DNA of 61,931 nt from Candidatus Micrarchaeota archaeon (GTDB taxonomy: Archaea; Micrarchaeota; Micrarchaeia; Norongarragalinales; SBBD01), in assembly GCA_043803465.1 (NCBI GenBank), contig JAZDKC010000040.1, positions 1 to 61,931 on the forward strand, given 5' to 3'. The position numbers were made by a program, and so were the translations under genes. The notes under the pieces were generated by a model. That model made no database searches and was not told where the DNA came from. It saw only the letters and a program-made list of their open reading frames with translations. Numbering within the stretch: the stretch's first letter is position 1; the number at the start of each line of letters is the position of its first letter. Of this stretch, positions 2-41,252 are shown piece by piece.

Positions 2-250
2 CCAATAAACGAAGACAACGTGAAGAAGACCCTTAGTGCCGCGGGGATGCAGGCGGATGCCGCAAAGGTGAAGTCGCTCGTTTCCTCACTCGAGGGAGTG
101 GACATCGAGGATGCGATCAAGCAGGCCGCTGTTGTTGCCGCTCCTGCTGCCGCAAGTGGTGCCGCAAAGCCCGCTGAGAAGAAGGAGGAAGTGAACGAGG
201 AGAAGAGGGAGGAGGAGGCTGCTGCCGGATTGGCGAGCTTGTTCGGTTAA
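2..250 (+). CDS. rpl12: 50S ribosomal stalk protein P1/L12, C-terminal part (5' end upstream of window)
   Basis: The frame is open from base 2 (..INEDNVKKTLSAAGMQADAAKVKSLVSSLEGVDIEDAIKQA..). It has an Ala-rich hinge, an acidic stretch and the canonical archaeal stalk tail EEAAAGLASLFG, then TAA at 248-250. The listed ORF 20..250 is only the GTG-initiated part. Confidence 0.9.
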   Translation, partial: PINEDNVKKTLSAAGMQADAAKVKSLVSSLEGVDIEDAIKQAAVVAAPAAASGAAKPAEKKEEVNEEKREEEAAAGLASLFG

Positions 251-305
251 TTTTTTCCTCTTTTTTGTTTTATTTATTTTTTCTTAAAGCTAATTCTATT
301 TTTTT
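251..305 (+). terminator. T-rich tract downstream of rpl12 (archaeal oligo-T terminator candidate)
   Basis: Runs of T6, T6, T4 and T6 lie directly after the TAA. Archaeal RNA polymerase terminates at oligo-T. A near-identical tract is repeated at 521-570. Confidence 0.5.
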
Positions 306-324
306 CAATCACTAGAGTAACAAA

Positions 325-410
325 GGGGTAGAGGCGACATACCGAAGACATAGGTCTTCGTATGTTAGTAGAGCTGAGCTCTACGTAACACGAGTAGGGA
401 AATGTCGCTC
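325..410 (+). repeat. Composite/nested copy of the G-rich hairpin element family
   Basis: It starts with GGGGTAGAGGCGACA, identical to the 5' end of the 37128 copy. It contains hairpins CGAAGAC-ATAG-GTCTTCG and GTAGAGC-TGA-GCTCTAC, then ACACGAGTAGGGAAATGT, which matches the 37128 copy apart from one G. GGCGACAT (333-340) can pair with ATGTCGC (402-408). Confidence 0.6.
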
Positions 411-432
411 ATTAATTCGCAGAACAAATTAA

Positions 433-481: not shown

Positions 482-570
482 GAGGAGGCCGCTGCTGGTT
501 TGGCGTCTTTGTTCGGCTGATTTTTCCTCTTTTTTTGTTTTATTTTCCTTAGTTCTAATTCTATTTTTTT
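482..570 (+). repeat. Second copy of the rpl12 3' end (12 codons + stop + T-rich tail), no start codon
   Basis: 482-520 encodes EEAAAGLASLFG-stop, identical in amino acids to 212-250. It has 8 nucleotide differences, all synonymous (including AGC vs TCT Ser and TAA vs TGA). 521-570 matches the T-rich tail 251-305 with a few indels. Confidence 0.85.
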
Positions 571-5960: not shown

Positions 5961-8900
5961 CTACTTCGTGATCTTCGACTTGGATAGCATGTCGTTCAGC
6001 GCCCAGTCGGGCTGCGCGTCGAGCTTCTCGCTGATCGAGTCGAGGTATTCTCCGGTTATGGATCCGGGGCAGTAGCCATTGACTTCGCACGCGTCCCGCA
6101 ATTGCTCGTACATGTTCCTTGCAGCCACAGCAGCATTCGGCTGCTGCACGGGCGTTTCATCAGATGGTGCTGCAGGCAGATCGGTTATCTTATCCACCAC
6201 TTGCGTAAACACTTGATCGGCTGAAATGTCCATCTTCGTCACCGGCGCCTCGATTGTCAGGAAGAGCGATTTGTAGAGTTTTTCGGGGTCGATTCCCTTG
6301 TTCACTCCTGTGATTAGCGTATAGCCCTGCTCTGTCGCGTATTGCCTGCCCTTGATCAGGTAAATGCAGATCGAGCTGTCAGCAGGATCGCACATTGCGC
6401 CCGAATCCAGCGCATTCAGGCAGCCTTCCTCCTCTCCCAGGTTCCTTGCGCAGATGCGCCTCATCGATGCCTTGTCCCATGAAAGCGCACTGCCTTCATC
6501 GACATTGTAGGAAACAAGGTGGTGCGGGAACCTATAATCCAGCGCGCCCTGCACAGGCCTCACATCAACGTGGAACAGCAATGGGATTAGAAGTGAAATT
6601 ATGTTTCGTGATTTCCTGAACCGCTCCAGCTCGCCGTATTCGCCGCCGAAGAATCTCCTGAGCCTGCCCTTCGCCGCCTGCTCCTGCCTCTTGACTTCGC
6701 CGACCAGTTTGTTTGCCTGCTCCGTAGTGAGGCCTAGTTTCGCATATGCACCCGCCGGATCCGTCAATGCCTCCACATTCAGTAGTGCCTTCGCCTTCGA
6801 GGATAAAACTGCCGGCGTCCCAACGCCCTTGAATCTCCTGCTGAGAGTGTCAATGGCTTTCTGGGTCAATTTTTCCTCTTCCGTGAAGAAATCATCCGCA
6901 TAGGAAATCAATGTTTGATCCACAGCGGAAATATCCTGCGCAATTTCACCATACCTAAATGCAGCTGCGCCGGTCAATTTGCTAGGAGGCCGTTTACCGG
7001 TCAATGCGGTATGCTCCTTCTTCAGCGCCTCCCTTTCGGATCTCAGGAGTTTCATTTCCTCCACTATATTGCCCCTCTTCTTGGCAGCATCGGCAAATCC
7101 CTTCGGGTCCATTTGCTCGTACGCTTTTGTGAGTTCGTTCTGTCTCATCATGAAAGCCTCTGGATTCTGTGTAAGATCCTTCTCGAATTGCGCCATCATT
7201 TCCGCTTTTGTGAGCCCCACCCTCTTTGCGTTTAATTGCTGGTCGTACCAATCCAGGTTTGTAGTGCCGGTAGCCGTATCAAAACCAAGCGTCTGCGCCG
7301 CAGCCAGAGTGCCGGCAACGGGCGAATTTGCCTCCATTATCCTGCCGGCCAAGGTGCTTGCATCCTTGATTCCCATCCCCGACCTCGTGAGATAGTCCAT
7401 CAGGTAGGCACGGCTTCCGAATGTCTTTGCGACCTTCAGGCCGCCGTACATAGCGGGTGTCGAAGTGTAGGTCGGCGTATCATCGCCGGTTACAAAATTA
7501 TAGCCGGCGGTCACGCCGTCGATTGCAGTTGTCAGGGCGACAAAACCCACCAATTCGAATAGGAATTTTCCCCCGAATGCGGCGCCGAATTTCAAGCCCT
7601 CGCCGCCGCCGGGAATTGCGGTAATCAATAATTCGGTCGCACCTGCAAAGCCGCCAGCCAAGCAATTGTTCGCAACTTCGCAAACCGGTGTTTTGGAGGT
7701 ATCTGCAGCCCTGAATGTAAGCCCTTGATAAATCGAGGCGCCGCATAAGGCGGCGGTTGTGGAAAGCCCATAAGCCGCTTTGATTGCCATTACTTCATTC
7801 CATACTGCGCTCGGCGCACCTACTCCGGTCAACGCCTTTCCGAAATTGGTCAGCAAACTCCCGCCCAGTGCGAGTGATGCAACGCCCATTGTCGCAACCA
7901 CGCCGCCGGTCATGTAGCCTGCGCAATACCATCCGGCCTCGTACGGTTCCGCCACGGCCATTGCTTCAGAACGGTCTATCTTGTAGAGCGTCCGGTAGAG
8001 GATATTCAGGTTCTGGATGTCCACCCTGTTGGCTGTACGCTTGTAGGGCCCGACAGTGAACAACTGCACCTTGTCAAGCAGGCCTATCAGCCCGCCGGCT
8101 TCGCTGCCGCTATCATCCCCGATGTTCCATCCGATTCCGGTTGACAGCTCGCGGCCCACAACTCCTTCCGTATTTCCGCGCTCCGCTACAAGCAGCGCCG
8201 CATTTGCAAGGGTGAAATTGCATTCCATGCCCGGCGTAAGCCTGAATTCAATGTTCGAATATTTCAGCCAATCGGCCTTCTTGGAGGGAGCTGTTGCAAA
8301 TTTGCAGATGTCGAGCCTTCCCTCCAGTATGTAAACGCCGCAGCCCTTCACATCAACAGTAGAGGTTGTGATCTTGAACCCGTCGTCGGATTGCTTCAAT
8401 ATGGAGTCGAATTCGGATTTAGAAAGCTCCAGCGACCGCTCCGAATCGAGCAGCGTTTCCGAATTTGCAGCCTGCAGGACGATTGATTTCTTGTAACCGC
8501 CATCGCTAAGGGTTTTCTCGCAGAATTTCGTGAGATCATTCGGGTATTCGGCATCCGACGCAAGCGTTTCAACAAGCGTCTTGAATTCTCCTGCAAATTC
8601 AGTGAATGCTGTTTCCACCTGTACAGAGGTGCAGAAATTGGTCTGGCATTTCATCACTGATGCATCCAAAGTTGTGAACACCTGGGGCTTGGGGCCAACA
8701 GAGGAGGGCGCATCATCCGCAAACGATTGCGCATTCACATCTGAATAAAAGCGGTCCACATAGCCGGACAAGGTCACCTCCGCCTCGGCTGTTGCCGCCT
8801 CCTGCGGTGCCAGGTCTCCGAGTGGTGAGGCGGAATACAATGCCTTGAAATCGGGTTCGGGCTCGAATACCTCGATGTTCACGTACCTTATATACTCGTT

Positions 8901-11900
8901 AATATCCCCGGCGGAATCGCTCGGAGTAATCTTCAGGCGGCCCTTGCCTTTCTTCTTTGAAACGCACTTGAGGACAGTCCCCTTGCCGGGTTCGAGCGTG
9001 CCTGTTGAAGGCGAGCAGCTTACCAATTGCGTGTCGCCGGTTACCGAGTAAGTGATTGCCTTGTCAAGATTGTTCACAGCCGCAATTGCACGCTCGTGAT
9101 TGATGCTCTTGAAGGAAAGCTTCATGAGCGCATTGTCGAACCTCACGTTCTGCTGGTCATCCGCATAATTGACATAGAAGCCGTTCATCATCTTCCGGAA
9201 TTGCTTGAACAGCGAGCCGCTGCATGTGCCCGTGCCCTTATCAAGCTTGATCTTTATGCCGATCTTCTCGGTCACCGCCTTCCCGTTGTATTCTCCAAAC
9301 AGGGTCACATATGTTTCGGAGTCGGGGTCGGTGACGCGGCCGTTCGCGCTTTCCAAAATGCAGCCGTCCTCATCCAGATATTGCGACGGCACGCCAATGT
9401 CGAGCCGGAAGGATTGGTATTTGCAGTTCTGCTTTGCAGGATCCACGGATTTGATGATCATCTTCGGATCCACTTGCCATGCGATTGGGCGGGTGACGCT
9501 CTTGAGCGCTCCATCCAGCTCCCCGCTAACTGACTCGCCGGTGTAGCCCACGTACCTCTTCTCGAGCGTCGTGCGGCTCATCAACGGATCGTCATCCAGC
9601 CTGAACTCCACCGCAAGGTTGGAAAAGCCCCAGTTCTGCACGCACACATACCTGGCCTGCGAGCCCTGTGCGTTCGTGTCGTCAAATTCCAAATCCAAAA
9701 GCTTGTCTGCGGTATCCGGCTTCCCGCCTTCAGGAGGCGCCTCGAATGCGACAAGAGGGCTGCTTGCATCCGCGATGAACGCGAATTTGTCCTTCTTCGC
9801 CTTGGTCTCGCAAAGTTCAAATGAAATCTTGTCTGCTTCCCTTACGACAATTTCCTGCGGCTTTTCGGGGTTGTTGGAAGTGCCCGGAAGCAGCCTCGCA
9901 TCCTCCTCGAACACTATTGATTTCACGGATGGAAGCTCATATTCGCGCGGCGCGTCTTCCCCGGCAATCTCGATCTTTATGTTCTTGCAGCCTCCCAGAT
10001 TCGCAATCTTTTGCTTATCATCGAATGTTTGGGCGGTTGAAGGCAGCGATACAGAAACCTCCTTCCCGAAAACCGCATGCAGCCAGTATTTGCCGTCATC
10101 ATCCTTCTTGATGGTTGCGACAATCGTCATGGTGCCCGGGATCGTCAATGTTTTCGGATCCGAGATGAAATCAGCGGAGGTGAAATCATATTGTTTCATC
10201 ATGAGCCTATTGCCCAGGAACGAGAACTCGTCCTTCTGCTCGTGATCCGCAAGCTTTATCTCAGCCGCTTCCGCAAACCGGAATGAATGATAAATCTCCT
10301 CTATTTTCTGCTTGTATGGCTCGAGCTTCGGCTGCAGGAATACGTCCCCGGGGATTTCAGCCATTACGGGGAATGAGAACCGCATCTCAAAATCGCGGCC
10401 TTCGGGAGTCGGGTCTATCTGCGTGAACGTGACGCCCTTCAATGAATCCAATTTCGCAAGGGCAATGTCATTGTAATTGTCGTTCCTCTGGAATGCGAGG
10501 CGCTCGACAGCGTATATCACCCTATAGCCCTCGTTTTCATTCCGTATTGAATTGGGGGGCGTGAGGAGCGCATTCGCGAGCGGGAAGTGGTAGGTCGTCT
10601 GTTCCGGGATCTTGATTGTGAACGATTCCGTCCCGTATTCGGATTTTTCAACCTTGATCATGCGGTTGCCAGCTCCAGGCGCGTTCGCGGAGAATGTGAT
10701 TTCAGTTCCTGCAGCGATCGTGACCTCCTTTGCCTCGAATGCCTTCTCATTCACTTCGACGTTCTCCATCAGCATCCTGTTGCCGTTCTCAAATTGTATC
10801 TGCGTCAGCGCGCCTTTCCTCTTCACTGCTGCCGAGGAGGGCAAATTGATTGTAATGCTTACGGGCAATTTCCTCGTGATCCCTACAACCCCGAAATCAG
10901 TAGGCTGGATGGTAATTGGCGCGGCCGGAAGCGCCTCTATCAATCTTGAGCCATCCGCATATTCGAGCCCGACCCTAGTGGTGCCCTGCGCAAAAAGCAG
11001 CTCATAAACTTCGGTTGAAATGGAGCGCGCCTGCGTTGCGCCGGCATCGAGCGCGAGCGCGATGCGGTCGCTCTTCGGAACCTTGAATTGCAGCTTGAAT
11101 GGCAATTGCAGGTGCAACTCGCCGTTCATCCCCTCCTGCGCATAAGGCGGCGGGATGCGGACAGCTGTTGCAGCCGGGATTGTAATTTTTCTTTGTTCAT
11201 TGAACAGGTCCCCGCTTCCACCGGTTGCAACGGGATCAGTTGAGGAGCGTGAATCCGGCGGCAATGTGATTGTCGTTCCCGAATCAAACTGAATGGCTCT
11301 GGAGCCGGTATAATCATCCGTCCTTATCCGGACCCTTTCTTGAATGACAAAAGTGGTGTCGACGGGGAAGTAGACTTCAATCGAGTCCTGGGAATTCGTG
11401 AAGGGGGTGAGCTGTATTCCGATGTAGGTGTTCGGCGGGATTGTCGCTCGCCTTTCATTGGAGCTTCTGCCCCGGACCAATGGAACCGAGGATGGGAAGT
11501 ACAAATCAAAATCCTCAATGCTTGCGATCTTCTGGCTGTCCTTCTGGGAGAATTCGGTTTCAGGCTCAAAATCAATGAAGGTGGTGAATGGGAACGCAAG
11601 CTTGTAGGAACTTGTTGATAATGACCGCGCATATGGGGACAAACCGGTGGTGCTAAAACCAGTGTAGCCAATCGGCTGGAGCATCGGTGTTTGCTGCACG
11701 TATTTTGGCGATGCCTCGATGAAAACGCCTGCTGGCACTATTATATAGCTCCCCCCTCCGGATGTGACCGCAGGGAATGCTGGCTGATTGGCGTATGACG
11801 AATATTGGTTCGCACTGCTTGTCAATTGCGCACCTGCCCCGAAAATGAACCGTTCCTTGGAGGGCAATTCTATCAGGATGGTGCCATCTGCATTGTACTT

Positions 11901-14900
11901 TGTTTTTGTGTTCGCGGGCAATTGTGCGGTTAGGGAAACCGGAAGGGTAACTTGCAGCGCATTTTCAATCGTGCAGGTTTCAGTCGAGGCGACTGCAACC
12001 TCCGTGGTTGCCGTTTTCTTCGAGTTGATCCCGTTGCTGGAGGCGTAGAAATCGATTTTTCCCTTGAACGTCTCTTCCTCGAATTTGCAGGATTCGGTTG
12101 ATGTCGCGCGGCCGTAAACAGTGAATTCAGCTGTCTCGCCGATATCCAAATTCTTTGAAAGCGGTTCGACGTAAACATTCGGCGAGGAGGATTGGTGGTT
12201 GACAAGGATCGGGTACGGCGCATTGTTGGCGATGATGATCGTCTGCGATTCCTGCTTGATTTTCGGCGGCGCTACTGAGAAACTAAGGGAATCCGGCGAT
12301 ATGCTCCAAAGCGCGTTCAGGTCGTCCTGCTTGAAATCGGTCGTGACGGTGAAGGGGATGTCCTCAGTCTGCTCGGATGCGCCGAGCTTTGCAACTATGC
12401 GAACCTTTCCGGTGATTTTCTCCTTCAATACCTGCGGCTTGTTCGAGACCTTGATGATCAGGTCCGAAATTTCGGCCTCGAGATTGTTGGTATCCCGCTC
12501 AAGCCCCTTGACAGTTGCACCGCCCTTCTCCAAGGTTACATCCGTGTATTTTCCGGTTGTGGAAGTCAGCGTATAGGTTACCTTCAGCTCGTTTGAGAGA
12601 AGATTTTCAACATTGAACGCCGAGACCTCGATTTGATCGGAAGAGGTGGAGATTGAAAGCGCCCGGGTATCGAGCTGGAAAAGCGTGGTCGCCTGCGTCT
12701 GTATTGTGCCCGCCTTCACCTTGAAGCCTTCTGCTGTTACACGGAAGGAAACAGAGCCTATCGAGGGCGGATTCACATTTTCAATCACATAGGTGATGGT
12801 GCCATCCTTTGCCTCCTGCAATTCCGCCTCGAGCACCGCGCCGCCAAGCGCATCTGCTCCGCTTCCAAGGGTCACGAAAGCGTTCTTCAACGGCAGGTTG
12901 AGCGAGTCCGTCACGGTGAACACAACACGGTTTTCCTTCAATGCCTTCAATATCTTCCCGCCGCCCTTCTCCACTATCACATTAAATGAGACCTTCAAAT
13001 CCGGCTTCTCCCCGACGATGCGGAGCGACAGCGGCTTTGTTATCGTGCTTTCCCCGCTTTTTACCGATAATTGCAAATCGATGTTGTTGACGAGCCTTCT
13101 GGCTTGGAGGGTGAATCCGCCCTCTGCATTGTCCGAGGATGTGGAGAGCGACAAAATCTGCCGGTTCTCGGTTGTTTTCAATACGGCCTTGGAGGCACCC
13201 GAAAGCCCTTCGGTGAGAGAGATAGTTTGGTCATCCAATGGCGCGGACAATTCAACTGTCGCCCCCTTTGGTGCAACGATCTTGAAGTTCAATTTGAATG
13301 TTTCGGAAATCGGCGCCTCAAAATTATCCTCAGCCGTGCCTGAGCTTCCCTCGAAATTGCTCTGCAGGCAGATCCCGTTGTCGCATTTGCCCTCGAAGGA
13401 TATTGTGAGCGATTGGGCCTGCATATTTGCAAGGAACGCGCCACGGGGCGCGGAATTGTCGATCGGGTCCCGCAGGACCTCCTTGTCAGTAAAGAACGCC
13501 GACCTGTATTGCAGTTCCACCTTCCCATTCGAAACGGCGCGCGTCCTGAATTGGACGCTCACCTCCTTGCTGCCTTCAAAGGGCTGGAAATCAAAATGGG
13601 CATATTTGTAAGCGTCAGAATCCACGTCCGCGAGGTTGAGCGATGCGGCTGCCGAAGGCGTTTCCGTGCCCTCGATATTCGGCTGCAGGGTCGCAATTGC
13701 CGACGCATCCGTTGAAGTGCCCTTCGTGACAACGGCACCGACCGCATCATAACCGATTATCTCCGCTTGCTCGTTCTCCAAGGCCACACCGGCATTTCCA
13801 ATCCTAACCTGCACCTCAACCCGCGTTATTTTAACTTTCGGCCGGTTGATTACAAACCTTGCGTTATAAGTCGTCGAGGGTGAAAGCGTATTTACCTGCT
13901 CGCCTTTCAAGTTGAAAACCCCGGAATATGCGATCTTCGTTTTCTGCGCGATTTCCGAGAGCATGATCCCGAAGCTGACCTTGTTGTCGATGTTGGGCTT
14001 CACCTCGAATTCGCTCGAGGTAAAAAGGTCGTATTTGTTCGCGCTTACTATTGCGACATAGAAGCCTTCCTGCAATTGCGCGGTGCACCTGCCGGCCTTG
14101 GTTGTGCAGCTTGCAATGGGGGAGAACTCCACATCCGAAGGCGAGAACTCCACCTTCGCATTGTCCACATTCTTGCCTGTGAAGTGGTCCTTCACCAAAA
14201 CGACTGCTCGGCCTTTCGCGGGCTTCAACGCGACTTTCAATAAATTGATTCCCGTTTCCTCGCCGGTGCCGGCAAGTGAGAGCTCAACAATGCTGCTCAT
14301 GCCGTTCCTTCCGTTGAAGGATGCCTTCGCATAAATTTTCACAAGCGGCAATTCTTCATAGCTGGCAATGCCATCATTGCCGGCGATCTTGTCAATTGAC
14401 CCGACAGGGGTTCCATCCTCATAGAAAAGCGAAACTGCTGATTGCGGAACCGCATCCCCGTTCTGGTTCTCCACCTGCACCTTCAATTTTGCGGAGTTGG
14501 CGGTGCTTGCGGATTCCATGTAAACGGTGTAGCTGTTGCCTTTTTCCGCATTCTGGAGGGTTGCAGGCAGGAAGCCGGGCTTTACAACAGTTATATAATA
14601 CTGGCCGCTTCCGACATCGTTGAAAAGCGCAACGCCGTCCATCGGATTGCTCTCCCCTACCTTCGTGAATTTTTCATCGTATAGCTTTGCTACCGGATTG
14701 ACAATTTGCGAATCGCCCATGTCGAGCACAATCACCTTGATCGCCTTGAGCTCCGCTTCCGGGATTTTGTCAAGCGCCAAAAGGAAGTTTGTCTCGTCCT
14801 CGATTGTTTTCTCAGCGGATTTGACCACATATCCCTGAAGGCGTGCAACTGCCTTCACAATTTTCCCTATCGCCAGTTCCTGCGGGCTGATCTCCCCGTT

Positions 14901-15776
14901 CTCCCCGGTTTTCAGATTGGTGAATATTTTCGTGTTGGTTACCGAATCGATAATATCGACGGAAACATCCTTCAATGCCCTTGCAGTCGCAGCATCCGTG
15001 ACATGCACGCGCACTTTTCCATTTATGATCTTGTCCCTTGGCCTTAATGTAATTGAGATGCTCTCGTCGTTCTCCTTCAAATAAATGGTCCGGTTTTCCT
15101 TGTTGTATCCTTGCGCCTCCACTTTCACAAAAAATTCCGTATTCACGGCAAGATCGGAGTATGAGACGGCAAGCCCGGGTTTTGGCGAGCCCGGAACTGA
15201 AAGCCTGTCAGGACCCTCGAACAAATAAATTTGCGCGCTTTCCCCGCTTCCCAGTCCTTTCAAATTGACCGTCAGGCTCACCTTGGGCTCGATTAACGGA
15301 GCGGAAAGGGCGAGGATGAAGGTGGATTTGGTCGGTGTGACTGCAATGCGGTCACTTTCAAAGTTCAATGACTCTCCCTGGAAATCCGAAGCCGCTACAA
15401 GGAATGCGGTTCCTATTTTGATCTTTTCAAAAGTGACTTTTCCATCCTCGTCGGTAGTCGCTTTTTCCGGCGAGGGCACGTCATTGCTTTCGGGGGTCAG
15501 CATTACCTCGGTGTTCGCAAGCGGCCTTCCGGCCGAATCCTTTAATGTGAGCAGGATCGAGGTTTCCTTCGGCGCGAAAATGCTCACCTGGCCGCCTCCG
15601 AGCGTGAGGTAGAGCGTGCCGCCAACTAGGAGCAATAGCAAAACCAAAAAGAAGGGCATCGCGGGGATCCCTTTTTCCTCGAGCGAATCCGAGATGCCGC
15701 GCAGAGGCAGGCCTTTCTCATCAGACCATTCCAGCAGGGATTCCCACTTCTCCTGAAGGCTTTCCGCTATTCCCAT
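5961..15776 (-). CDS. Giant (3271 aa) membrane-anchored surface protein
   Basis: The ORF is uninterrupted. It has a short N-terminal cytoplasmic segment, a TM helix (MPFFLVLLLLLVGGTLYLTL), many beta-sandwich-like repeats of the carboxypeptidase-regulatory/Cna-B style (e.g. LTLKDSAGRPLANTEVML...DEDGKVTFEKIKIG), a Gly/Ala-rich hydrophobic cluster near nt ~7480-7960, and a ~500-aa C-terminal region with coiled-coil-like segments. Confidence 0.9.
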   Translation of the reverse strand: MGIAESLQEKWESLLEWSDEKGLPLRGISDSLEEKGIPAMPFFLVLLLLLVGGTLYLTLGGGQVSIFAPKETSILLTLKDSAGRPLANTEVMLTPESNDVPSPEKATTDEDGKVTFEKIKIGTAFLVAASDFQGESLNFESDRIAVTPTKSTFILALSAPLIEPKVSLTVNLKGLGSGESAQIYLFEGPDRLSVPGSPKPGLAVSYSDLAVNTEFFVKVEAQGYNKENRTIYLKENDESISITLRPRDKIINGKVRVHVTDAATARALKDVSVDIIDSVTNTKIFTNLKTGENGEISPQELAIGKIVKAVARLQGYVVKSAEKTIEDETNFLLALDKIPEAELKAIKVIVLDMGDSQIVNPVAKLYDEKFTKVGESNPMDGVALFNDVGSGQYYITVVKPGFLPATLQNAEKGNSYTVYMESASTANSAKLKVQVENQNGDAVPQSAVSLFYEDGTPVGSIDKIAGNDGIASYEELPLVKIYAKASFNGRNGMSSIVELSLAGTGEETGINLLKVALKPAKGRAVVLVKDHFTGKNVDNAKVEFSPSDVEFSPIASCTTKAGRCTAQLQEGFYVAIVSANKYDLFTSSEFEVKPNIDNKVSFGIMLSEIAQKTKIAYSGVFNLKGEQVNTLSPSTTYNARFVINRPKVKITRVEVQVRIGNAGVALENEQAEIIGYDAVGAVVTKGTSTDASAIATLQPNIEGTETPSAAASLNLADVDSDAYKYAHFDFQPFEGSKEVSVQFRTRAVSNGKVELQYRSAFFTDKEVLRDPIDNSAPRGAFLANMQAQSLTISFEGKCDNGICLQSNFEGSSGTAEDNFEAPISETFKLNFKIVAPKGATVELSAPLDDQTISLTEGLSGASKAVLKTTENRQILSLSTSSDNAEGGFTLQARRLVNNIDLQLSVKSGESTITKPLSLRIVGEKPDLKVSFNVIVEKGGGKILKALKENRVVFTVTDSLNLPLKNAFVTLGSGADALGGAVLEAELQEAKDGTITYVIENVNPPSIGSVSFRVTAEGFKVKAGTIQTQATTLFQLDTRALSISTSSDQIEVSAFNVENLLSNELKVTYTLTSTTGKYTDVTLEKGGATVKGLERDTNNLEAEISDLIIKVSNKPQVLKEKITGKVRIVAKLGASEQTEDIPFTVTTDFKQDDLNALWSISPDSLSFSVAPPKIKQESQTIIIANNAPYPILVNHQSSSPNVYVEPLSKNLDIGETAEFTVYGRATSTESCKFEEETFKGKIDFYASSNGINSKKTATTEVAVASTETCTIENALQVTLPVSLTAQLPANTKTKYNADGTILIELPSKERFIFGAGAQLTSSANQYSSYANQPAFPAVTSGGGSYIIVPAGVFIEASPKYVQQTPMLQPIGYTGFSTTGLSPYARSLSTSSYKLAFPFTTFIDFEPETEFSQKDSQKIASIEDFDLYFPSSVPLVRGRSSNERRATIPPNTYIGIQLTPFTNSQDSIEVYFPVDTTFVIQERVRIRTDDYTGSRAIQFDSGTTITLPPDSRSSTDPVATGGSGDLFNEQRKITIPAATAVRIPPPYAQEGMNGELHLQLPFKLQFKVPKSDRIALALDAGATQARSISTEVYELLFAQGTTRVGLEYADGSRLIEALPAAPITIQPTDFGVVGITRKLPVSITINLPSSAAVKRKGALTQIQFENGNRMLMENVEVNEKAFEAKEVTIAAGTEITFSANAPGAGNRMIKVEKSEYGTESFTIKIPEQTTYHFPLANALLTPPNSIRNENEGYRVIYAVERLAFQRNDNYNDIALAKLDSLKGVTFTQIDPTPEGRDFEMRFSFPVMAEIPGDVFLQPKLEPYKQKIEEIYHSFRFAEAAEIKLADHEQKDEFSFLGNRLMMKQYDFTSADFISDPKTLTIPGTMTIVATIKKDDDGKYWLHAVFGKEVSVSLPSTAQTFDDKQKIANLGGCKNIKIEIAGEDAPREYELPSVKSIVFEEDARLLPGTSNNPEKPQEIVVREADKISFELCETKAKKDKFAFIADASSPLVAFEAPPEGGKPDTADKLLDLEFDDTNAQGSQARYVCVQNWGFSNLAVEFRLDDDPLMSRTTLEKRYVGYTGESVSGELDGALKSVTRPIAWQVDPKMIIKSVDPAKQNCKYQSFRLDIGVPSQYLDEDGCILESANGRVTDPDSETYVTLFGEYNGKAVTEKIGIKIKLDKGTGTCSGSLFKQFRKMMNGFYVNYADDQQNVRFDNALMKLSFKSINHERAIAAVNNLDKAITYSVTGDTQLVSCSPSTGTLEPGKGTVLKCVSKKKGKGRLKITPSDSAGDINEYIRYVNIEVFEPEPDFKALYSASPLGDLAPQEAATAEAEVTLSGYVDRFYSDVNAQSFADDAPSSVGPKPQVFTTLDASVMKCQTNFCTSVQVETAFTEFAGEFKTLVETLASDAEYPNDLTKFCEKTLSDGGYKKSIVLQAANSETLLDSERSLELSKSEFDSILKQSDDGFKITTSTVDVKGCGVYILEGRLDICKFATAPSKKADWLKYSNIEFRLTPGMECNFTLANAALLVAERGNTEGVVGRELSTGIGWNIGDDSGSEAGGLIGLLDKVQLFTVGPYKRTANRVDIQNLNILYRTLYKIDRSEAMAVAEPYEAGWYCAGYMTGGVVATMGVASLALGGSLLTNFGKALTGVGAPSAVWNEVMAIKAAYGLSTTAALCGASIYQGLTFRAADTSKTPVCEVANNCLAGGFAGATELLITAIPGGGEGLKFGAAFGGKFLFELVGFVALTTAIDGVTAGYNFVTGDDTPTYTSTPAMYGGLKVAKTFGSRAYLMDYLTRSGMGIKDASTLAGRIMEANSPVAGTLAAAQTLGFDTATGTTNLDWYDQQLNAKRVGLTKAEMMAQFEKDLTQNPEAFMMRQNELTKAYEQMDPKGFADAAKKRGNIVEEMKLLRSEREALKKEHTALTGKRPPSKLTGAAAFRYGEIAQDISAVDQTLISYADDFFTEEEKLTQKAIDTLSRRFKGVGTPAVLSSKAKALLNVEALTDPAGAYAKLGLTTEQANKLVGEVKRQEQAAKGRLRRFFGGEYGELERFRKSRNIISLLIPLLFHVDVRPVQGALDYRFPHHLVSYNVDEGSALSWDKASMRRICARNLGEEEGCLNALDSGAMCDPADSSICIYLIKGRQYATEQGYTLITGVNKGIDPEKLYKSLFLTIEAPVTKMDISADQVFTQVVDKITDLPAAPSDETPVQQPNAAVAARNMYEQLRDACEVNGYCPGSITGEYLDSISEKLDAQPDWALNDMLSKSKITK

Positions 15777-16817: not shown

Positions 16818-16842
16818 GCATATTCATTCCGAAACAGATTGC

Positions 16843-16908
16843 TTAACCCATCCTCCTTGGCAACGGGTAAATGGCCCCGCACTTCTTGCACACTTTCTCC
16901 TTGTGCTT
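16843..16908 (-). repeat. Second copy of the last 21 codons + stop of the zinc-ribbon gene
   Basis: The minus strand encodes KHKEKVCKKCGAIYPLPRRMG-TAA, identical in amino acids to 16960-17025. The 6 nucleotide differences are all synonymous (GGA/GGG, ATA/ATT, TAT/TAC, CTT/TTG, AGA/AGG). Confidence 0.9.
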
Positions 16909-16959
16909 GACACCCACAGGGAAACTACGTTTCCCTCCACGTGTCGCCGCCACCCTTCC
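16909..16959 (-). repeat. G-rich hairpin element (51 nt) between the two copies of the gene end
   Basis: The minus strand reads GGAAGGGTGGCGGC GACAC GTGG AGGGAAAC GTA GTTTCCCT GTGG GTGTC. The architecture matches 433-481 and 37128-37175. It is 17 sense codons long, in frame with the gene, with no stop. Confidence 0.75.
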
Positions 16960-17304
16960 TTAACCCATCCTTCTTGGAAGCGGATATATGGCTCCGCACT
17001 TCTTGCACACTTTCTCCTTGTGCTTCCAGTTGAGGTCGAAATCAATCCCGCCGCAGTCCGCGCAGCCGCGCACCTCCGCCTTATGAAAGTCGCGCCAGCC
17101 CTCCTTGCCATCCCTTCCCACAAACGATGTGTGCGAATACGCGACCTTCTCGTGCTGGTGGGTTGTTGTAGCTAGCTTGGTGTCGAACTTCTTCCTTTCG
17201 GACGCATGCCGGATCTTCTTGCTCGAGCAGCGGGGGCAGATCTGCGGGTCGTCGGATTCAAATAGCAATTTGCAATTGTCGCATTCGTATTTCATGGGAA
17301 TCAA
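16960..17304 (-). CDS. Small double zinc-ribbon protein
   Basis: 114 aa with CDNC-x10-CPRC and CADC-x14-CKKC. Its start overlaps the stop of the upstream epimerase gene (ATGA-type overlap, 17301-17304). Confidence 0.7.
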   Translation of the reverse strand: MIPMKYECDNCKLLFESDDPQICPRCSSKKIRHASERKKFDTKLATTTHQHEKVAYSHTSFVGRDGKEGWRDFHKAEVRGCADCGGIDFDLNWKHKEKVCKKCGAIYPLPRRMG

Positions 17305-35891: not shown

Positions 35892-36977
35892 TTAGATGTA
35901 GTTTACGTTCTCCAACCCCATCGCATCCGCAACTGCCTGCTTCTTCTTCTCCTCATGCCTTAGCACATTGGGTGAAGTGACGCCGGTCACAACTGCGGTC
36001 ACGATGATCTTGTCTCCAAGCTCCGGTGAAATCCTTGCACCCCATTTGACGTACGCCTTCGAGTCAAATGCAGCAGTGATTCCCTCCCCGATCTTCACAG
36101 CCTCTCCCAATGTCAATTGGGGCCCGCCGTTGATCAGGATGAGTGCGCCCTTCGAGCCCGCATAATCAACATCCAAAAGGGGATGCTCCAAAGTGCTTTG
36201 GATCACATTCTTCACGCGGTCCGTTCCGCTTGCCTCTCCAATTGAGATCATTGCAGTGCCTGCATTGCCCATGATCATCCTAAGGTCGGCAAAGTCGATG
36301 TTCATCAGCGATGGCAGCATCACGGTGTCCGCTATGCCTTTCACGGCTTTCGCGACCAGAGTGTCCGCAACTGCGAATGCCTGGTTCATCGGAAGGTTCG
36401 GGACGAATTGCACGAGCTTGTTGTTGTCGATTATGACAACAGTGTCGCAAGTTTCCTGCAATGCATTCAATCCCCAGTCCGCTTTCTCAAGCCTTGCCCT
36501 TTCCAGTGCGAAGGGGAAGGTGACCATTCCGACAGTGATTGCGCCCTGCTGCTTTGCTATCTGAGCAACGATCGGGGCCGCTCCGGTTCCAGTGCCGCCG
36601 CCCATACCTGCGGTGATGAAGACTAATTCAGAATCCTTCAGCACTTCACTTAGCTTATCCCTTGCGCTCTCAGCTGCTTTCGCCCCTACTTCAGGGAATC
36701 CGCCCGCTCCAAGGCCCTTGGTCATGGATGCGCCGATTAAAAGCTTCCTGTTCGCTTCCACCAATCTCAAGTGGTTCGCATCAGTGTTGATGGCGATTGT
36801 ATCCGCGCTCGTGATGCCCATTTTGGTGAGCCTCGATACGCAGTTCGTGCCTGCTCCTCCGACTCCGACGACTGTTATCTTCAGTTTCGCGGGAGTGAAG
36901 GACTTCCCTGCTTCTTCAGGGAGCTTGTCGTGCGCACTGTACTTCAGTGCATCTGCAATTAAACTATCCATACACAT
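35892..36977 (-). CDS. ftsZ: Cell-division GTPase FtsZ (paralog 1)
   Basis: It has the tubulin signature GGGTGTGAAPIVAQIAK, GVGGAGTN and NTDANHL. GGAGGAG precedes the second ATG (36971), which may be the real start. Confidence 0.95.
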   Translation of the reverse strand: MCMDSLIADALKYSAHDKLPEEAGKSFTPAKLKITVVGVGGAGTNCVSRLTKMGITSADTIAINTDANHLRLVEANRKLLIGASMTKGLGAGGFPEVGAKAAESARDKLSEVLKDSELVFITAGMGGGTGTGAAPIVAQIAKQQGAITVGMVTFPFALERARLEKADWGLNALQETCDTVVIIDNNKLVQFVPNLPMNQAFAVADTLVAKAVKGIADTVMLPSLMNIDFADLRMIMGNAGTAMISIGEASGTDRVKNVIQSTLEHPLLDVDYAGSKGALILINGGPQLTLGEAVKIGEGITAAFDSKAYVKWGARISPELGDKIIVTAVVTGVTSPNVLRHEEKKKQAVADAMGLENVNYI

Positions 36978-37127
36978 CTCCTCCGGTGGGTTTACCGTTT
37001 ATCCAATGGTTTTTTTGCAAGCGTGCGTAATTTTGCCTGCGCGCCTCGAACGAGGGAAAAACATGATGTGAAATCGCAGCTAATCAACTGCGCATATTTC
37101 CAAGGTGGGATTTAATCCCCAAATAAT

Positions 37128-37175
37128 GGGGTAGAGGCGACACGAGTAGGGGAAATGTGTTCCCCTGGAGGTGTC
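37128..37175 (+). repeat. G-rich hairpin element, copy between the two ftsZ genes
   Basis: Sequence: GGGGTAGAGGC GACAC GAG TAGGGGAA ATGTG TTCCCCTG GAG GTGTC. Its 3' end overlaps the stop codon of ftsZ paralog 2 on the opposite strand. A GGGATT-T-AATCCC palindrome lies 10 nt upstream (37107-37119). Confidence 0.7.
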
Positions 37176-38241
37176 AGCCAATGATCTCGATGTCGTACCC
37201 AAGCTCTCTTTCTGCTTCCTTCTTCTTGGTTACATCCCTGCCAACTATGTTGGCCGAGGTGACACCGGTAACTATTGCAACGATCTCCAGCTTTCCATCG
37301 AAGTCAGGTAGCAGCCTTGCTCCCCACTTGACAGAAGCCTTCGCATCCATTGTCTCCGTGATCCTCTCTCCTGCCCGGATCGCATCCCCCAAAGTAAGGT
37401 CCGCGCCTCCGGCAATGTGGATCAGTGCGCCTTTTGCGCCTGCAAAATCCACATCAAGCAGGCGGTTCTTCATGACGCCCTCAACTGCATCATCCACCTT
37501 GTTTGGACCCTTTCCGCTTCCCACTGCAATCATTCCAACGTCCCCTTGCCCCATGATCGACCTGACATCAGCAAAATCTATGTTGACCAGGGATGGTTGG
37601 GTAATTGTGAAAACTAAACCTCCTATTGCCTTTGCAAGAATCTCATCCGCAACAAGGAACGCCTGGTTCATCGGCAGGTTCGGCACGATCTGCACGAGCC
37701 TGTTGTTGTCGAGAATGATGACTGAATCGGCGGTGTTTCTCAGGCGGTTGATTCCGTCCTCCGCCTTCGTGACCCTTGCGCGCTCTAGTGCGAAGGGGTA
37801 TGTTACCATCGCAACCACAATTGCGCCCATTTCCTTTGCGACCTCTGCAATGATCGGCGCAGCGCCAGTCCCAGTGCCTCCGCCCATGCCTGCGCAGATG
37901 AAAACCAGATGGGAACCGGAAAGCGCCCTTCGGATCTCCTCGCGGTCCATTTCAGCGCACTTCGCGCCTACTTCCGGGTATCCGCCTGCACCCAGCCCTT
38001 TTGTGATCGACTTACCAATCAGGAATTTCTTGACCCCTTCTTCAACGATATTCAAATGCTGCCTATCCGTGTTGCATGCAATCAATTCCGCGCCCTTCAC
38101 TCCAAGCCTCTTCAACCTGTTGACAGTGTTGTTCCCGCCGCCTCCGACTCCGATTACGGATATGCGGATGTGCTCGAATTCCTCACTTCTAACTCCAGTT
38201 GCACTAGAGCCACTTAAAGCGGATTTAATGATGCTCTCCAT
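37174..38241 (-). CDS. ftsZ: Cell-division GTPase FtsZ (paralog 2)
   Basis: It has the tubulin signature GGGTGTGAAPIIAEVAK, GVGGGGNN and NTDRQHL. 355 aa. Confidence 0.95.
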   Translation of the reverse strand: MESIIKSALSGSSATGVRSEEFEHIRISVIGVGGGGNNTVNRLKRLGVKGAELIACNTDRQHLNIVEEGVKKFLIGKSITKGLGAGGYPEVGAKCAEMDREEIRRALSGSHLVFICAGMGGGTGTGAAPIIAEVAKEMGAIVVAMVTYPFALERARVTKAEDGINRLRNTADSVIILDNNRLVQIVPNLPMNQAFLVADEILAKAIGGLVFTITQPSLVNIDFADVRSIMGQGDVGMIAVGSGKGPNKVDDAVEGVMKNRLLDVDFAGAKGALIHIAGGADLTLGDAIRAGERITETMDAKASVKWGARLLPDFDGKLEIVAIVTGVTSANIVGRDVTKKKEAERELGYDIEIIG

Positions 38242-38795: not shown

Positions 38796-41252
38796 ATGGT
38801 TTTTATGCCTGAAAAGAAGCGCGCATTCCTTTTGGACGTCGGCTACTTGATGAAGAACAACACGTCGCTTCTGCGATTGTTGCTGAAGGATCCGCAAACA
38901 AAAAGGACCTATCGCGTTTATGACGGGGAATTCGAGCCGTACCTGTACCTGAGGCCAAAGGAGGGGGAAATTGATAAGATTCAAGAAGACCTGATGCGCA
39001 TCCGCGTATTCGACCACGGAAAGGAAGTGAAAATAAAAAAGGTCGGGAAAGTGACTCGCTCCTTGAGGCATGAGGAATACGATTTCTTGAAAATAACCTG
39101 CCTCCACCCATCCGATGTCACAAAAATTCGGGATGAGGCGAAAAAATTCGGCGAAACGTTCGAGCACGGGATCTCCTTCACGAAAAGGTACCTGATCGAC
39201 AAGGGATTGATTCCGATGAGGGAAGTCGAATTCCACGAGGGGGATGGGAGGAAAATCAGCGGCATCGCCCCCATTGAGGATGCACAACTATCGGAGGTTC
39301 CGATGAAATTAATGGCGCTCGATATTGAAACGTACAATCCGAAGGGCATTCCAAATCCGCTCTCCGACCCCGCAATACTGATCGGGTGGGCGGATGGGGA
39401 GGAGAAAGGCATTTTCACATTCCAGAAAAAAGTGAGGGATGAGAACGCCCACGTTTCTGCGACTGAAAAGGAGATGCTCGAGGCGTTTGGGGATTTCCTG
39501 AAAAGGAAAAAAGTCGATTTGCTCGCGACCTATAACGGGGATCAGTTCGATTTGCCGTATTTGCGGGACCGCGCAAAAGTTTTGAAAGCCGGAATGCACC
39601 TTGGAAGGGATAGGGCGCCACCGAAGAGCAAATCCCTGGGCCTTAGGATCCAGACATCGCTAAATGGCCGCATTCATTTCGATGTTTTCCCAATTGTTTC
39701 CTTCCTGAACACGATCGGCGCATACAAGCTTGCGCGCCTCACCCTTGAAAATGTATATTTTGAAATCCTCGGAGGGAAGAAACTCGATGTCAAGAAGGAA
39801 AACATCTGGAGGGATTGGGATTCGAACGATCCTGCGAAATTGAAATACCTCGCGGAATATTGCGAGAATGATGCGGTCGCGGCGTACAGGCTTGCAATGC
39901 ACGTGATGCCGCTTGAAATCGAGCTTTGCAGGCTGACCGGCACATCGATTTTCGATGCGACCAGGAGCACTTCGGGCCAGCTGATTGAAATGCTCCTGAT
40001 GAGGGAGGCGTTCAAGGCGCATGAGATCATACCGAATAAGCCAAAGTACGAGGAAGTCCAGAAAAGGCTGGCAAATCCGGTCGAGGGCGCGTTCGTCAAA
40101 TTGCCTTCCCCGGGCGGTTATGAGAATATTGCAGTGCTTGATTTCAGGAGCCTGTACCCTTCAATAATCATTTCGCATAACATCGATCCTTCGACTTTGA
40201 ATTGCAAGTGCTGCTCCAGGGAGGAGTCATATGTTTCGCCGCAGGGCCATCGGTTTTGCAAAAAAAGGAAGGGTTTGATTCCGAGAGTTTTGCAATTCGT
40301 GCTCAATTCCAGGTATGAAATCAATGGAAAAATGAAGGAATTGAAAAAGGACGGGAAGGAGGAGGGATTCGGGTACAAGGAGATGGATGCAAGGCAATGG
40401 GCGTTGAAGATCATGGCGAATTCGATGTATGGCTATTTGCTTTATGCGCGCTCCCGCTATTATTCCAGGGAAGCGGGCGAATCGGTCACCGCATATGCGC
40501 GCGAATACATCCAAAAAACCATGGAGAAGGCGAAGGAATTCGGGATGGATGTGCTTTACGGCGACACGGACAGCATTTTCTTGCTTTACGGCAAAAAGGA
40601 GGATGAGCATAAGGTGACGGAATTCCAGCACAGGATAAATTCGGAACTGCCGGAGGGACTGGAGCTCGAGCTTGAGGATATCTATCCCCGCGGGATTTTC
40701 GTGAGCAAGAAGCAGGAGGAGAAGGGCGCGAAGAAAAAATACGCGCTGATCAACCGCGCGGGCAAAATTAAAATACGGGGATTCGAGCTTGTGAGGAGGG
40801 ACTGGAGCAAGGTTGCGAAGGACACGCAGCGCAAGGTGCTTGAAATCATCCTGAAAGAGGGGGATGTCACCAAGGCAATCGTGCTTGTTCGTGAAGTGAT
40901 TGAAAACCTAAAGTCCGGAAACACGCCGCTCGAGGAGCTTTCAATAATGACCCAGCTGAAAAAGCAGGCCGGAAGCTATGATATCATCTCCCCGGAGGTT
41001 TCCGCGGTGCAAAAGGCGAAAAAAGCCGGAGTGGTGCTCGATGACATGCCGATGATCAGCTATGTGATAACGAAAATGGGAAAAACCATTTCCGAGAAGG
41101 CCACAATCGTGGAAATGGCCAAGGATTACGATCCGGATTATTACATCAACAACCAGGTGCTTCCCGCAGTGCTCAAAATACTTTCCGCTTTCGGCTTCGA
41201 TGCGGAAAGCCTGAAGATGAAGGGGCAGCAGAAGAGCCTGGGCGACTGGTGA
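38796..41252 (+). CDS. polB: Family-B DNA polymerase with all catalytic motifs intact
   Basis: Motifs present: ExoI LDIETYN, ExoII YNGDQFDLPYL, ExoIII EYCENDA, motif A DFRSLYPSII, motif B KIMANSMYGY, motif C YGDTDS, KKKYA. 818 aa, no intein. Confidence 0.95.
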   Translation: MVFMPEKKRAFLLDVGYLMKNNTSLLRLLLKDPQTKRTYRVYDGEFEPYLYLRPKEGEIDKIQEDLMRIRVFDHGKEVKIKKVGKVTRSLRHEEYDFLKITCLHPSDVTKIRDEAKKFGETFEHGISFTKRYLIDKGLIPMREVEFHEGDGRKISGIAPIEDAQLSEVPMKLMALDIETYNPKGIPNPLSDPAILIGWADGEEKGIFTFQKKVRDENAHVSATEKEMLEAFGDFLKRKKVDLLATYNGDQFDLPYLRDRAKVLKAGMHLGRDRAPPKSKSLGLRIQTSLNGRIHFDVFPIVSFLNTIGAYKLARLTLENVYFEILGGKKLDVKKENIWRDWDSNDPAKLKYLAEYCENDAVAAYRLAMHVMPLEIELCRLTGTSIFDATRSTSGQLIEMLLMREAFKAHEIIPNKPKYEEVQKRLANPVEGAFVKLPSPGGYENIAVLDFRSLYPSIIISHNIDPSTLNCKCCSREESYVSPQGHRFCKKRKGLIPRVLQFVLNSRYEINGKMKELKKDGKEEGFGYKEMDARQWALKIMANSMYGYLLYARSRYYSREAGESVTAYAREYIQKTMEKAKEFGMDVLYGDTDSIFLLYGKKEDEHKVTEFQHRINSELPEGLELELEDIYPRGIFVSKKQEEKGAKKKYALINRAGKIKIRGFELVRRDWSKVAKDTQRKVLEIILKEGDVTKAIVLVREVIENLKSGNTPLEELSIMTQLKKQAGSYDIISPEVSAVQKAKKAGVVLDDMPMISYVITKMGKTISEKATIVEMAKDYDPDYYINNQVLPAVLKILSAFGFDAESLKMKGQQKSLGDW

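Follow-up and report, generated by a model that had tools for sequence, protein, structure and literature searches.

In the genome of a Candidatus Micrarchaeota archaeon, the gene of a zinc-ribbon protein (ZR) is followed by a short hairpin and, directly behind it, by a second copy of its own last codons, an arrangement that raises the question of what the hairpin is and whether the second copy is used by the protein. This was addressed over the whole of contig JAZDKC010000040.1 (61,931 nt, hereafter the window) and in related DNA, where the hairpin proved to belong to a structured family, here termed E, that lies between a target segment (X) and a repeat of that segment (X') at unrelated genes. 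The reading we favor, at a probability of roughly 0.55, is that E is a non-autonomous structured mobile element, confined to Micrarchaeota, that inserts with long target duplication and spreads between lineages.

At the ZR locus, the gene ends with KHKEKVCKKCGAIYPLPRRMG-TAA at 17025-16960, the same 21-codon peptide and TAA appear again at 16908-16843, and a 51-nt hairpin at 16959-16909 separates the two copies (fold of -22.3 kcal/mol, z = -3.3). The repeat has an identity of 63/70; its initial 32 nt are free of differences, and the 6 substitutions, distributed over 5 codons and of the types A>G, A>T, T>C, C>T, and T>G, are synonymous without exception. These values reproduce exactly what the original prediction, made from the window alone, had described for this locus (gene end, hairpin, gene end, with 32 identical nt and six silent changes), and the same is true of the 117-nt period from X to X' and of the 17 codons between the copies, which contain no stop.

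A second instance lies at rpl12, the gene of the ribosomal stalk protein P1, whose end at 212-250 (EEAAAGLASLFG-TAA) has its second copy at 482-520; the 8 substitutions between the two fall in 6 codons, are synonymous throughout, and include the Ser pair AGC/TCT. Here, the repeat continues through a T-rich downstream region (212-305 vs 482-570), and the intervening DNA comprises a long-form part of the element at 320-412 (-32 kcal/mol, z = -4.6), of which an intact version occurs at the same gene in relative L060. The parallel that had been drawn between the two loci holds for the repeated gene end and its all-synonymous changes but not for the reading frame, as in-frame stops stand between the rpl12 copies and only the 66 nt upstream of X' are open. 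Likewise, both hairpins noticed earlier are real, but a third copy of E in the window had been missed (table 1). This third copy abuts the stop codon of ftsZ2, the final two bases of E being part of that codon, and with these E bases in its stop codon the gene may have lost its native C-terminal tail. The copy is located between two tandem FtsZ paralogue genes on the minus strand (35892-36977 and 37174-38241, the latter being ftsZ2), which over some stretches are 74-81% identical at the nucleotide level (repeat families D1 and D3).

Table 1. Positions of the E-associated features in the window and of the interrupted tRNA genes in another Micrarchaeota genome
Feature	Location	Strand	Basis
ZR host gene (114 aa from TTG, 111 aa from ATG at 17295)	16960..17304	-	ORF
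X at ZR, functional last 21 codons and TAA	16956..17025	-	Repeat family D5
E at ZR, short-form hairpin element, GGTGTC end at 16909	16909..16961	-	Covariance model 55.9 bits, E = 2e-12; fold
X' at ZR, orphan downstream gene-end copy directly after GGTGTC	16839..16908	-	Repeat alignment, codon comparison
rpl12 (ribosomal stalk protein P1), 3' part, second host gene	2..250	+	PF00428 homologues
X at rpl12, last 12 codons, stop and 55 nt of T-rich downstream sequence	212..305	+	Repeat families D6, D4
Long-form element, 5' part (GGGGTAGAGGCGACAT, two extra hairpins, ..ACACGAGTAGGGAAATGT)	320..412	+	Fold, partial model match 320-356
Short-form E_B with 5' extension ATTCGCAGAACAAATTAA	413..481	+	Model match 430-481, 69.9 bits; extension motif common to other copies
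X' at rpl12, orphan gene-end copy and terminator region	482..570	+	Repeat alignment
Third E copy, antisense to ftsZ2	37123..37175	+	Motif; covariance model 68.3 bits; no repeat detected
T-loop-interrupted tRNAs of PPR_0039 (tRNA-Asn GTT, tRNA-Arg CCT, one more)	L010:345-520; L009:5847-6003; L009:7885-8000		

The consensus of E can be written as ..GGGGTAGAGGCGACAC-stem/loop-CCTGGAGGTGTC, and the exact motif GGCGACA..GGTGTC occurs three times in the window versus 0.02 expected. The three copies have GGGGTAGnGGCGACACGnGTAGG...CCTGnAGGTGTC in common and differ in the inner stem, where the changes are compensatory. In the window, a covariance model built from 23 copies recovered three full copies, one partial copy, and no others; overall, it gave 28 matches (27 distinct sequences) from 20 sources at 40-77 bits. 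Across the base-pair cells of the family, 98.5% are paired, and 7 of the 12 pairs exhibit compensatory changes on both sides; these pairing statistics were reached by none of 500 shuffles, and slid controls fell to 33-59% paired. The conserved hairpin carries a symmetric 3x3 internal loop. Rfam assigned no family to the window at gathering thresholds and, at relaxed thresholds, returned nothing meaningful for the short and long forms of E.

In the DNA fetched for the analysis, the family totals about 30 copies from about 12 assemblies, all of them from Micrarchaeota. A motif scan of GTDB with one genome per species gave 33 matches, 13 in metagenome-assembled genomes (MAGs) of Micrarchaeota and 20 in high-GC bacteria; the bacterial matches approximate the chance expectation, and none passes the covariance model. 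Additional copies came from a metagenome scan, and viral contigs searched with two motif patterns yielded no match and no sign of a viral or plasmid carrier. The unit measures 47-180 nt, is without an open reading frame (ORF), and encodes no protein. It has one precise end, GGTGTC, while its 5' side varies (long form, short form, with or without an extension), and the inverted repeat GACAC/GTGTC is terminal at the 3' end only. The long form, with two extra hairpins, was found in L060, in L026 and in the rpl12 region of the window; the short form seems to derive from it by internal deletion, and the 5' extension aTTCGCAgaAgtAAaTAAGGGG is present on many copies. Longer variants of at least 100 nt with other internal domains between GGCGACAC and GGTGTC were also seen (L002:6347-6455; L031:540-600). 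Larger composite or autonomous elements were sought as repeats up to 8 kb upstream of those E copies that have no nearby repeat, and none rose above shuffled controls; a related autonomous, transposase-encoding element was found neither in the window nor among the viral contigs.

The expectation that further hairpins would be followed by a repeat of the upstream gene end was borne out: in 19 of about 30 distinct copies, X' starts 0-5 nt after GGTGTC and repeats 17-94 nt of upstream sequence. Most repeats measure 30-94 nt and a few 17-27 nt, and their identity ranges from perfect down to 80%. Perfect or near-perfect repeats occur in L026 (59/60), L006 (70/71), L032 (36/36), L009 (38/38), L019 (21/21), and L015 (17/17), and diverged ones at the two window loci, in L048, L021, L029, L050, and L065, and in an older repeat pair of L006. 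Arrays of the X-E-X-E-X type were observed in L006, L026, and L031.

At least 15 different, unrelated targets were found, with near-identical E copies among them; they include zinc-ribbon, P1, archease-like, and other genes as well as tRNA-Thr, tRNA-Arg, and tRNA-Asn. E is sense-oriented at the 3' ends of protein genes (ZR, P1 in three genomes, and several others) and antisense at the 5' end of the archease-like gene in two genomes. In tRNA genes, the repeat takes in either the 3' part from the T loop on (tRNA-Thr, tRNA-Arg, and a further tRNA) or the 5' part from the D loop (tRNA-Arg). In either orientation, GGTGTC abuts X', and the host gene stays complete through the copy joined to its body, the exceptions being the T-loop tRNA insertions and ftsZ2, for which no repeat was found. 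In about 8 of 11 gene-end cases, no more than about 4 nt separate the right end of X from the stop codon, and X' begins at a codon boundary in 7-8 of the 8 well-defined gene-end loci in sense orientation. At two sites (L031:597-790 and L032:5440-5530), the host stop codon is supplied by the TAA-rich 5' part of E. In L031, E also provides the last few host codons. This supply by E changes the native C-terminus slightly (..KYRK-stop to ..KYRKV-stop).

At the archease-like gene (L029:3520-3680; L050:610-770), an orphan copy of the first 14 codons, including the ATG, and the reverse complement of E together make up an upstream ORF. In our translation, this ORF ends in both genomes with a TGA that overlaps the true ATG (ATGA), an overlap that suggests a translational coupling preserving expression. 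Furthermore, three tRNA genes of MAG PPR_0039 are split in the T loop by an antisense E and about 60 nt (table 1). ARAGORN calls none of these three interrupted tRNAs, and no intact tRNA gene is left. The insert in L010 is flanked by inverted E termini that are able to form a 9-bp helix.

These loci bear directly on the proposal that a recoding device, either stop-codon readthrough or a take-off and landing hop between GGT codons of the gene-60 kind, yields a C-terminally extended isoform containing the second copy. ZR alone combines an in-frame 117-nt period with 17 open codons, and GGT precedes its stop codon and the hairpin end alike; readthrough there would give the peptide ..RRMG-x-GRVAATRGGKRSFPVGV-KHKEK.., the absence of which is to be expected. 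Across the family, the period is divisible by 3 in about 5 of 13 loci, the others having 98, 100, 104, 106, 107, 118, or 130 nt. In-frame stops occur inside E in most loci. Those of L048, L032, and L026 stand, in the frame of X', 15-24 nt upstream of the junction, and those between the rpl12 copies have been described above. A start codon with an open frame for X' was sought across the loci, and none is conserved, a GTG being present at ZR only. The matching of GGT-TAA with GGT-GTC, from which the hop had been derived, does not survive either: GGTGTC is the element's own end and stays invariant in about 30 copies although the last host codons differ (GGT, CCT, AAA, GGC). E is additionally found antisense to genes and in tRNAs, and X' repeats an existing C-terminus, adding no new extending sequence. 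Given the periods, the stops, the lack of a conserved start codon, and the invariant GGTGTC, readthrough and hopping are rejected as very improbable. As judged from the sequences, X' is not translated in place, and there is no general mechanism for its translation.

An assembly artefact, arising from collapsed or chimeric strain variants, had been the third option offered for the ZR locus, and nothing beyond the general risk of metagenome assembly favors it. At least 12 independent assemblies, which come from separate projects and were made with different assemblers, show the same architecture at different genes, with the structured element always between the copies and with repeats that are perfect to 80% identical. 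Since the architecture recurs in independent assemblies with diverged repeats, we reject this explanation and regard its probability as negligible.

The remaining option of the original prediction, a mobile or integrative element that preserves the gene end, is supported in essence by the same architecture at many unrelated targets and by empty orthologous sites. Comparison of genomes revealed both states at ZR and at rpl12. ZR homologues occur solely in Micrarchaeota and keep their synteny, with an epimerase upstream and a giant protein downstream; together with the P1 homologues, they place the window in Micrarchaeota ('Ca. Norongarragalinales'). In the closest relative (L001, 77% amino-acid identity), the syntenic ZR locus has neither the hairpin nor the second copy, and the genome holds at least six E copies at other sites. 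In L004 (64% identity), a different E subfamily occupies the same ZR junction codon, and only 30 nt of X' remain recognizable, in which two changes are non-synonymous and one is synonymous. L002 carries a long E variant 24 nt after the ZR stop codon, with no target repeat. The rpl12 site is empty in L058/59, L061-64, and L067 and occupied in L060 and L065/66. In L060, a long-form E is followed by an X' nearly identical to the genome's own X, with a 1-nt indel, and in L065/66 a short E is followed by an X' that differs from X in 7 codons, all synonymously. The presence of occupied and empty sites among relatives implies that E has been gained and lost at given sites, and the changes in L004 and the indel in L060 imply that orphan copies can decay. 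An exact look-up of the window's ZR protein returned no record and hence no strain-level variants. The giant-protein gene that adjoins the ZR locus (window 5961-15776, minus strand, 3271 aa) keeps its neighborhood in relatives, whose proteins (3243 and 3220 aa) show just faint Big_1/CarboxypepD_reg matches.

The ZR-linked E of the window is identical at 51 of 53 positions to the E beside tRNA-Thr in PPR_0039; for host genes of the two genomes, identity amounts to 65-81%, and between the ZR-linked E and other E copies to 68-72%. On these comparisons, E appears to cross lineages by horizontal mobility.

The differences between X and X' call for an explanation of their own. In the five diverged gene-end repeats, 32 nucleotide differences fall in 29 codons, and 29/29 are synonymous; L065 adds 7 further codons with synonymous changes only. 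Under random change in a neutral copy, the joint probability of this outcome is about 1e-19, and by our own estimate it would still be about 1e-12 if one fifth of the changes had arisen in a constrained copy. Gene conversion between X and X' was rejected as the cause by reasoning, as it would leave more non-synonymous than synonymous differences. With X' untranslated in place, the synonymous-only pattern implies that each pair of copies comes from two sequences that were functional until recently. The best reading of these sequences is that both copies descend from two functional alleles, via recombination between lineages.

Several features of the repeats fit this reading, as does the apparent crossing of lineages by E itself. 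At rpl12, a Ser is encoded by AGC in X but by TCT in X', and functional alleles of relatives include both codon families. The ZR repeat is mosaic, with 5/5 changed codons in its second half (P of about 0.02 by our calculation), and in the rpl12 repeat the non-coding part is about 90% identical and the 8 differences lie within 13 codons. The orphan of L004 reads KHKE, as do genes of other lineages, and its own gene reads KRKE. The rpl12 orphans of the window and of L065 are mutual nearest sequences, with 5 differences, all synonymous, and the host copies differ at 13 positions; this pairing and the rpl12 distance matrix are only suggestive of two alleles. A comparison of the left and right rpl12 flanks with relatives, made for a recombination breakpoint, was not decisive.

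Three other classes of repeat were considered and rejected. A diversity-generating retroelement disagrees with differences that are not adenine-specific and are all synonymous, and there is no reverse transcriptase in the window. A CRISPR-like repeat disagrees with the variation of the inner stem between E copies, and a guide-RNA role of X' with a constraint that acts at the protein level and not at the nucleotide level.

A different account of the same pattern would be that E and one gene-end copy form a miniature integrative element of the e14/icd type, cycling between a free, probably circular, state and an integrated one by recombination at the GGTGTC/X junction. The carried copy would be functional on integration and the host's own end after excision, and this alternating use would place both copies under protein-level selection. 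Such a cycle fits the direct repeats flanking the element, the restored gene or tRNA ends, and tRNA repeats that, like those of classical attachment sites, extend from the T loop to the 3' end. It also fits the conservation of the junction between genomes for three genes and the X-E-X-E arrays, which are to be expected if an [X-E] circle integrates beside a resident element. The exclusively synonymous differences resemble those between icd and its displaced fragment icdC, which are mostly synonymous (PMC13626634). However, the unit is just 47-180 nt and without an integrase, and none is encoded in the window: a Pfam scan of 30 window ORFs gave no recombinase, transposase, or reverse transcriptase. 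Moreover, near-identical E copies at 15 or more unrelated targets would demand very rapid shifts of target specificity, many repeats show no mismatch even outside coding sequence, as for fresh target duplications, and orphans decay. We consequently regard an integrative cycle as unlikely.

The interrupted tRNAs lend themselves to yet another account, in which E and one repeat copy are spliced out of RNA as an intron-like element by a broad-specificity splicing endonuclease of Micrarchaeota, with X' as the exon used in some transcripts and hence selected. Three tRNA genes interrupted in the T loop within one genome would need processing to function, and excision of exactly one repeat period restores the frame at any period. 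Micrarchaeum possesses an epsilon2 EndA with broad substrate specificity (PMC3239211), and by analogy such an endonuclease could be relevant to the processing of interrupted tRNAs. Nevertheless, the expected junctions of the E-interrupted tRNAs show no bulge-helix-bulge motif, the hairpin has its symmetric internal loop and not two bulges 4 bp apart, and no conserved pairing with the variable flanks was observed. E can also face either way with respect to the host gene, and pairing between direct repeats is not possible. Removal from RNA is thus improbable.

Returning to insertion with long target duplication, the arrival of E would cause 17-94 nt of the target on its 5' side to become repeated right after GGTGTC. 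The repeat would usually reach a stop codon, a start codon, or a tRNA 3' end, and with the repeat reaching such a terminus the copy attached to the gene body would keep the host gene complete. At ZR and rpl12, the functional copy would be the upstream one and the other an untranslated orphan. We infer that insertion is duplicative, with function supplied in trans; the process may copy to a defined template end and then re-prime some tens of nucleotides upstream. That the process is single-strand or replication-linked is hinted at by microhomology at the 5' junction and by the preference of E for hairpin loops.

Several points weigh against this reading. No enzyme, intermediate, or within-population polymorphism of empty and occupied sites was seen, so that the mobility of E is drawn from comparisons between species. 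The same GGTGTC/X' junction recurs at ZR (window, L004), archease (L029, L050), and rpl12 (window, L060) despite differing E subfamilies. This recurrence is not what duplicative insertion wholly at random would predict; purine-rich GAR/AAG sites may be preferred, or the junction may be inherited with the unit. The placement of the right end of X near the stop codon needs a further explanation, for which selection or microhomology to E's TAA-rich 5' part could be considered. Finally, the two-allele explanation is drawn from very short sequences, and X' may instead be under purifying selection through some periodic function.

Among known systems, the closest to E are insertions with long target duplication in bacteria, with e14/icd as a functional analogue. 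Insertion of this kind has been described for kb-sized restriction-modification gene units, whose repeats frequently include a start or stop codon, so that the target gene is preserved (Furuta et al. 2010, PMC2853133). In these cases, as with E, direct target repeats of variable length reach tens of bp or more, no transposase lies inside, and related genomes have empty sites. For E, the repeats are variable and mostly at least 30 bp long, the relatives L001, L058, and L061-64 are empty, and no mobility gene is found inside. The bacterial cases are one-off insertions, whereas E is a structured, non-coding, archaeal multi-copy family of 50-180 nt with one invariant end that also enters tRNA loops. 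With e14/icd and tRNA islands, E shares the location at a gene 3' end, an alternative end copy that keeps the gene intact, and a displaced C-terminal pseudogene at the far side, and like tRNA-targeting integrative elements it has tRNA repeats that run from a loop to the 3' end. Those elements have at least 15 kb, an integrase of their own, and a single fixed attachment site; E is tiny, encodes nothing, and occupies many unrelated sites. Its flanking direct repeats and restored gene end thus agree with an integrase element, and the lack of an encoded integrase and of a single site does not.

MITEs (miniature inverted-repeat transposable elements), repetitive extragenic palindromic (REP) sequences with their mosaic assemblies (BIME), and Rickettsia palindromic elements are selfish repeats that are small, palindromic, and non-coding, are specific to a lineage in which they have multiple copies, and often lie at gene ends. 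A MITE carries inverted repeats at its termini and duplicates a short target stretch of fixed length, REPs have no target duplication, and Rickettsia palindromic elements are translated in frame. E resembles all of these in being small, non-coding, multi-copy (3 copies in 62 kb), and lineage-specific, but it differs in its single sharp end, variable 5' side, and duplications of 17-94 nt; the terminal inverted repeats and the short fixed duplication of a MITE are both absent. In target-primed insertion of the non-long-terminal-repeat (non-LTR) or short-interspersed-element (SINE) type, the 3' end is precise, the 5' side is variable or truncated, and target duplications vary. The precise 3' end, the long and short forms, and the variable duplications of E are alike as an analogy only, whereas no reverse transcriptase was seen in the window and E has no A/T tail; to our knowledge, no such retroelement is known in archaea. 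E groups neither with bulge-helix-bulge introns nor with bypass or readthrough elements. A limited literature search found no description of such a hairpin family in archaea, although an earlier description is possible, and a MITE census of 8,220 archaeal genomes does not mention Micrarchaeota (PMC11602168).

A possible but doubtful extension of the reading is that E represents a new class of archaeal mobile element, a hairpin module copied horizontally into hairpin loops and gene termini without a transposase, with target duplications making the insertion harmless. Candidate routes for transposase-free copying would be template switching or priming from the defined GGTGTC end.

Elsewhere in the window, two genes of family-B DNA polymerases appear to be present (38796-41252, plus strand; 56304-58586, minus strand); the second matches PF00136, and the first was judged solely from a YGDTDS motif in its translation. 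A tRNA scan of the whole 62-kb window gave no tRNA genes.

The findings on E suggest that a selfish element can colonize the tiny, gene-dense genomes of DPANN archaea, including the gene of an essential ribosomal stalk protein and tRNAs, without destroying them. They would extend insertion with long target duplication, known from single bacterial gene cassettes only, to a multi-copy family, which thereby offers many independent junctions for analysis. E would also mark where lineages of Micrarchaeota have recombined or exchanged DNA horizontally. For annotators, the case is a warning that a duplicated gene end, even one that codes perfectly, is not necessarily a sign of recoding. If the tRNA-borne copies are processed, they would bear on the long-standing question of how archaeal tRNA introns originated, and if E is indeed a new class of mobile element, its T-loop insertions would be raw material of non-canonical archaeal tRNA introns.

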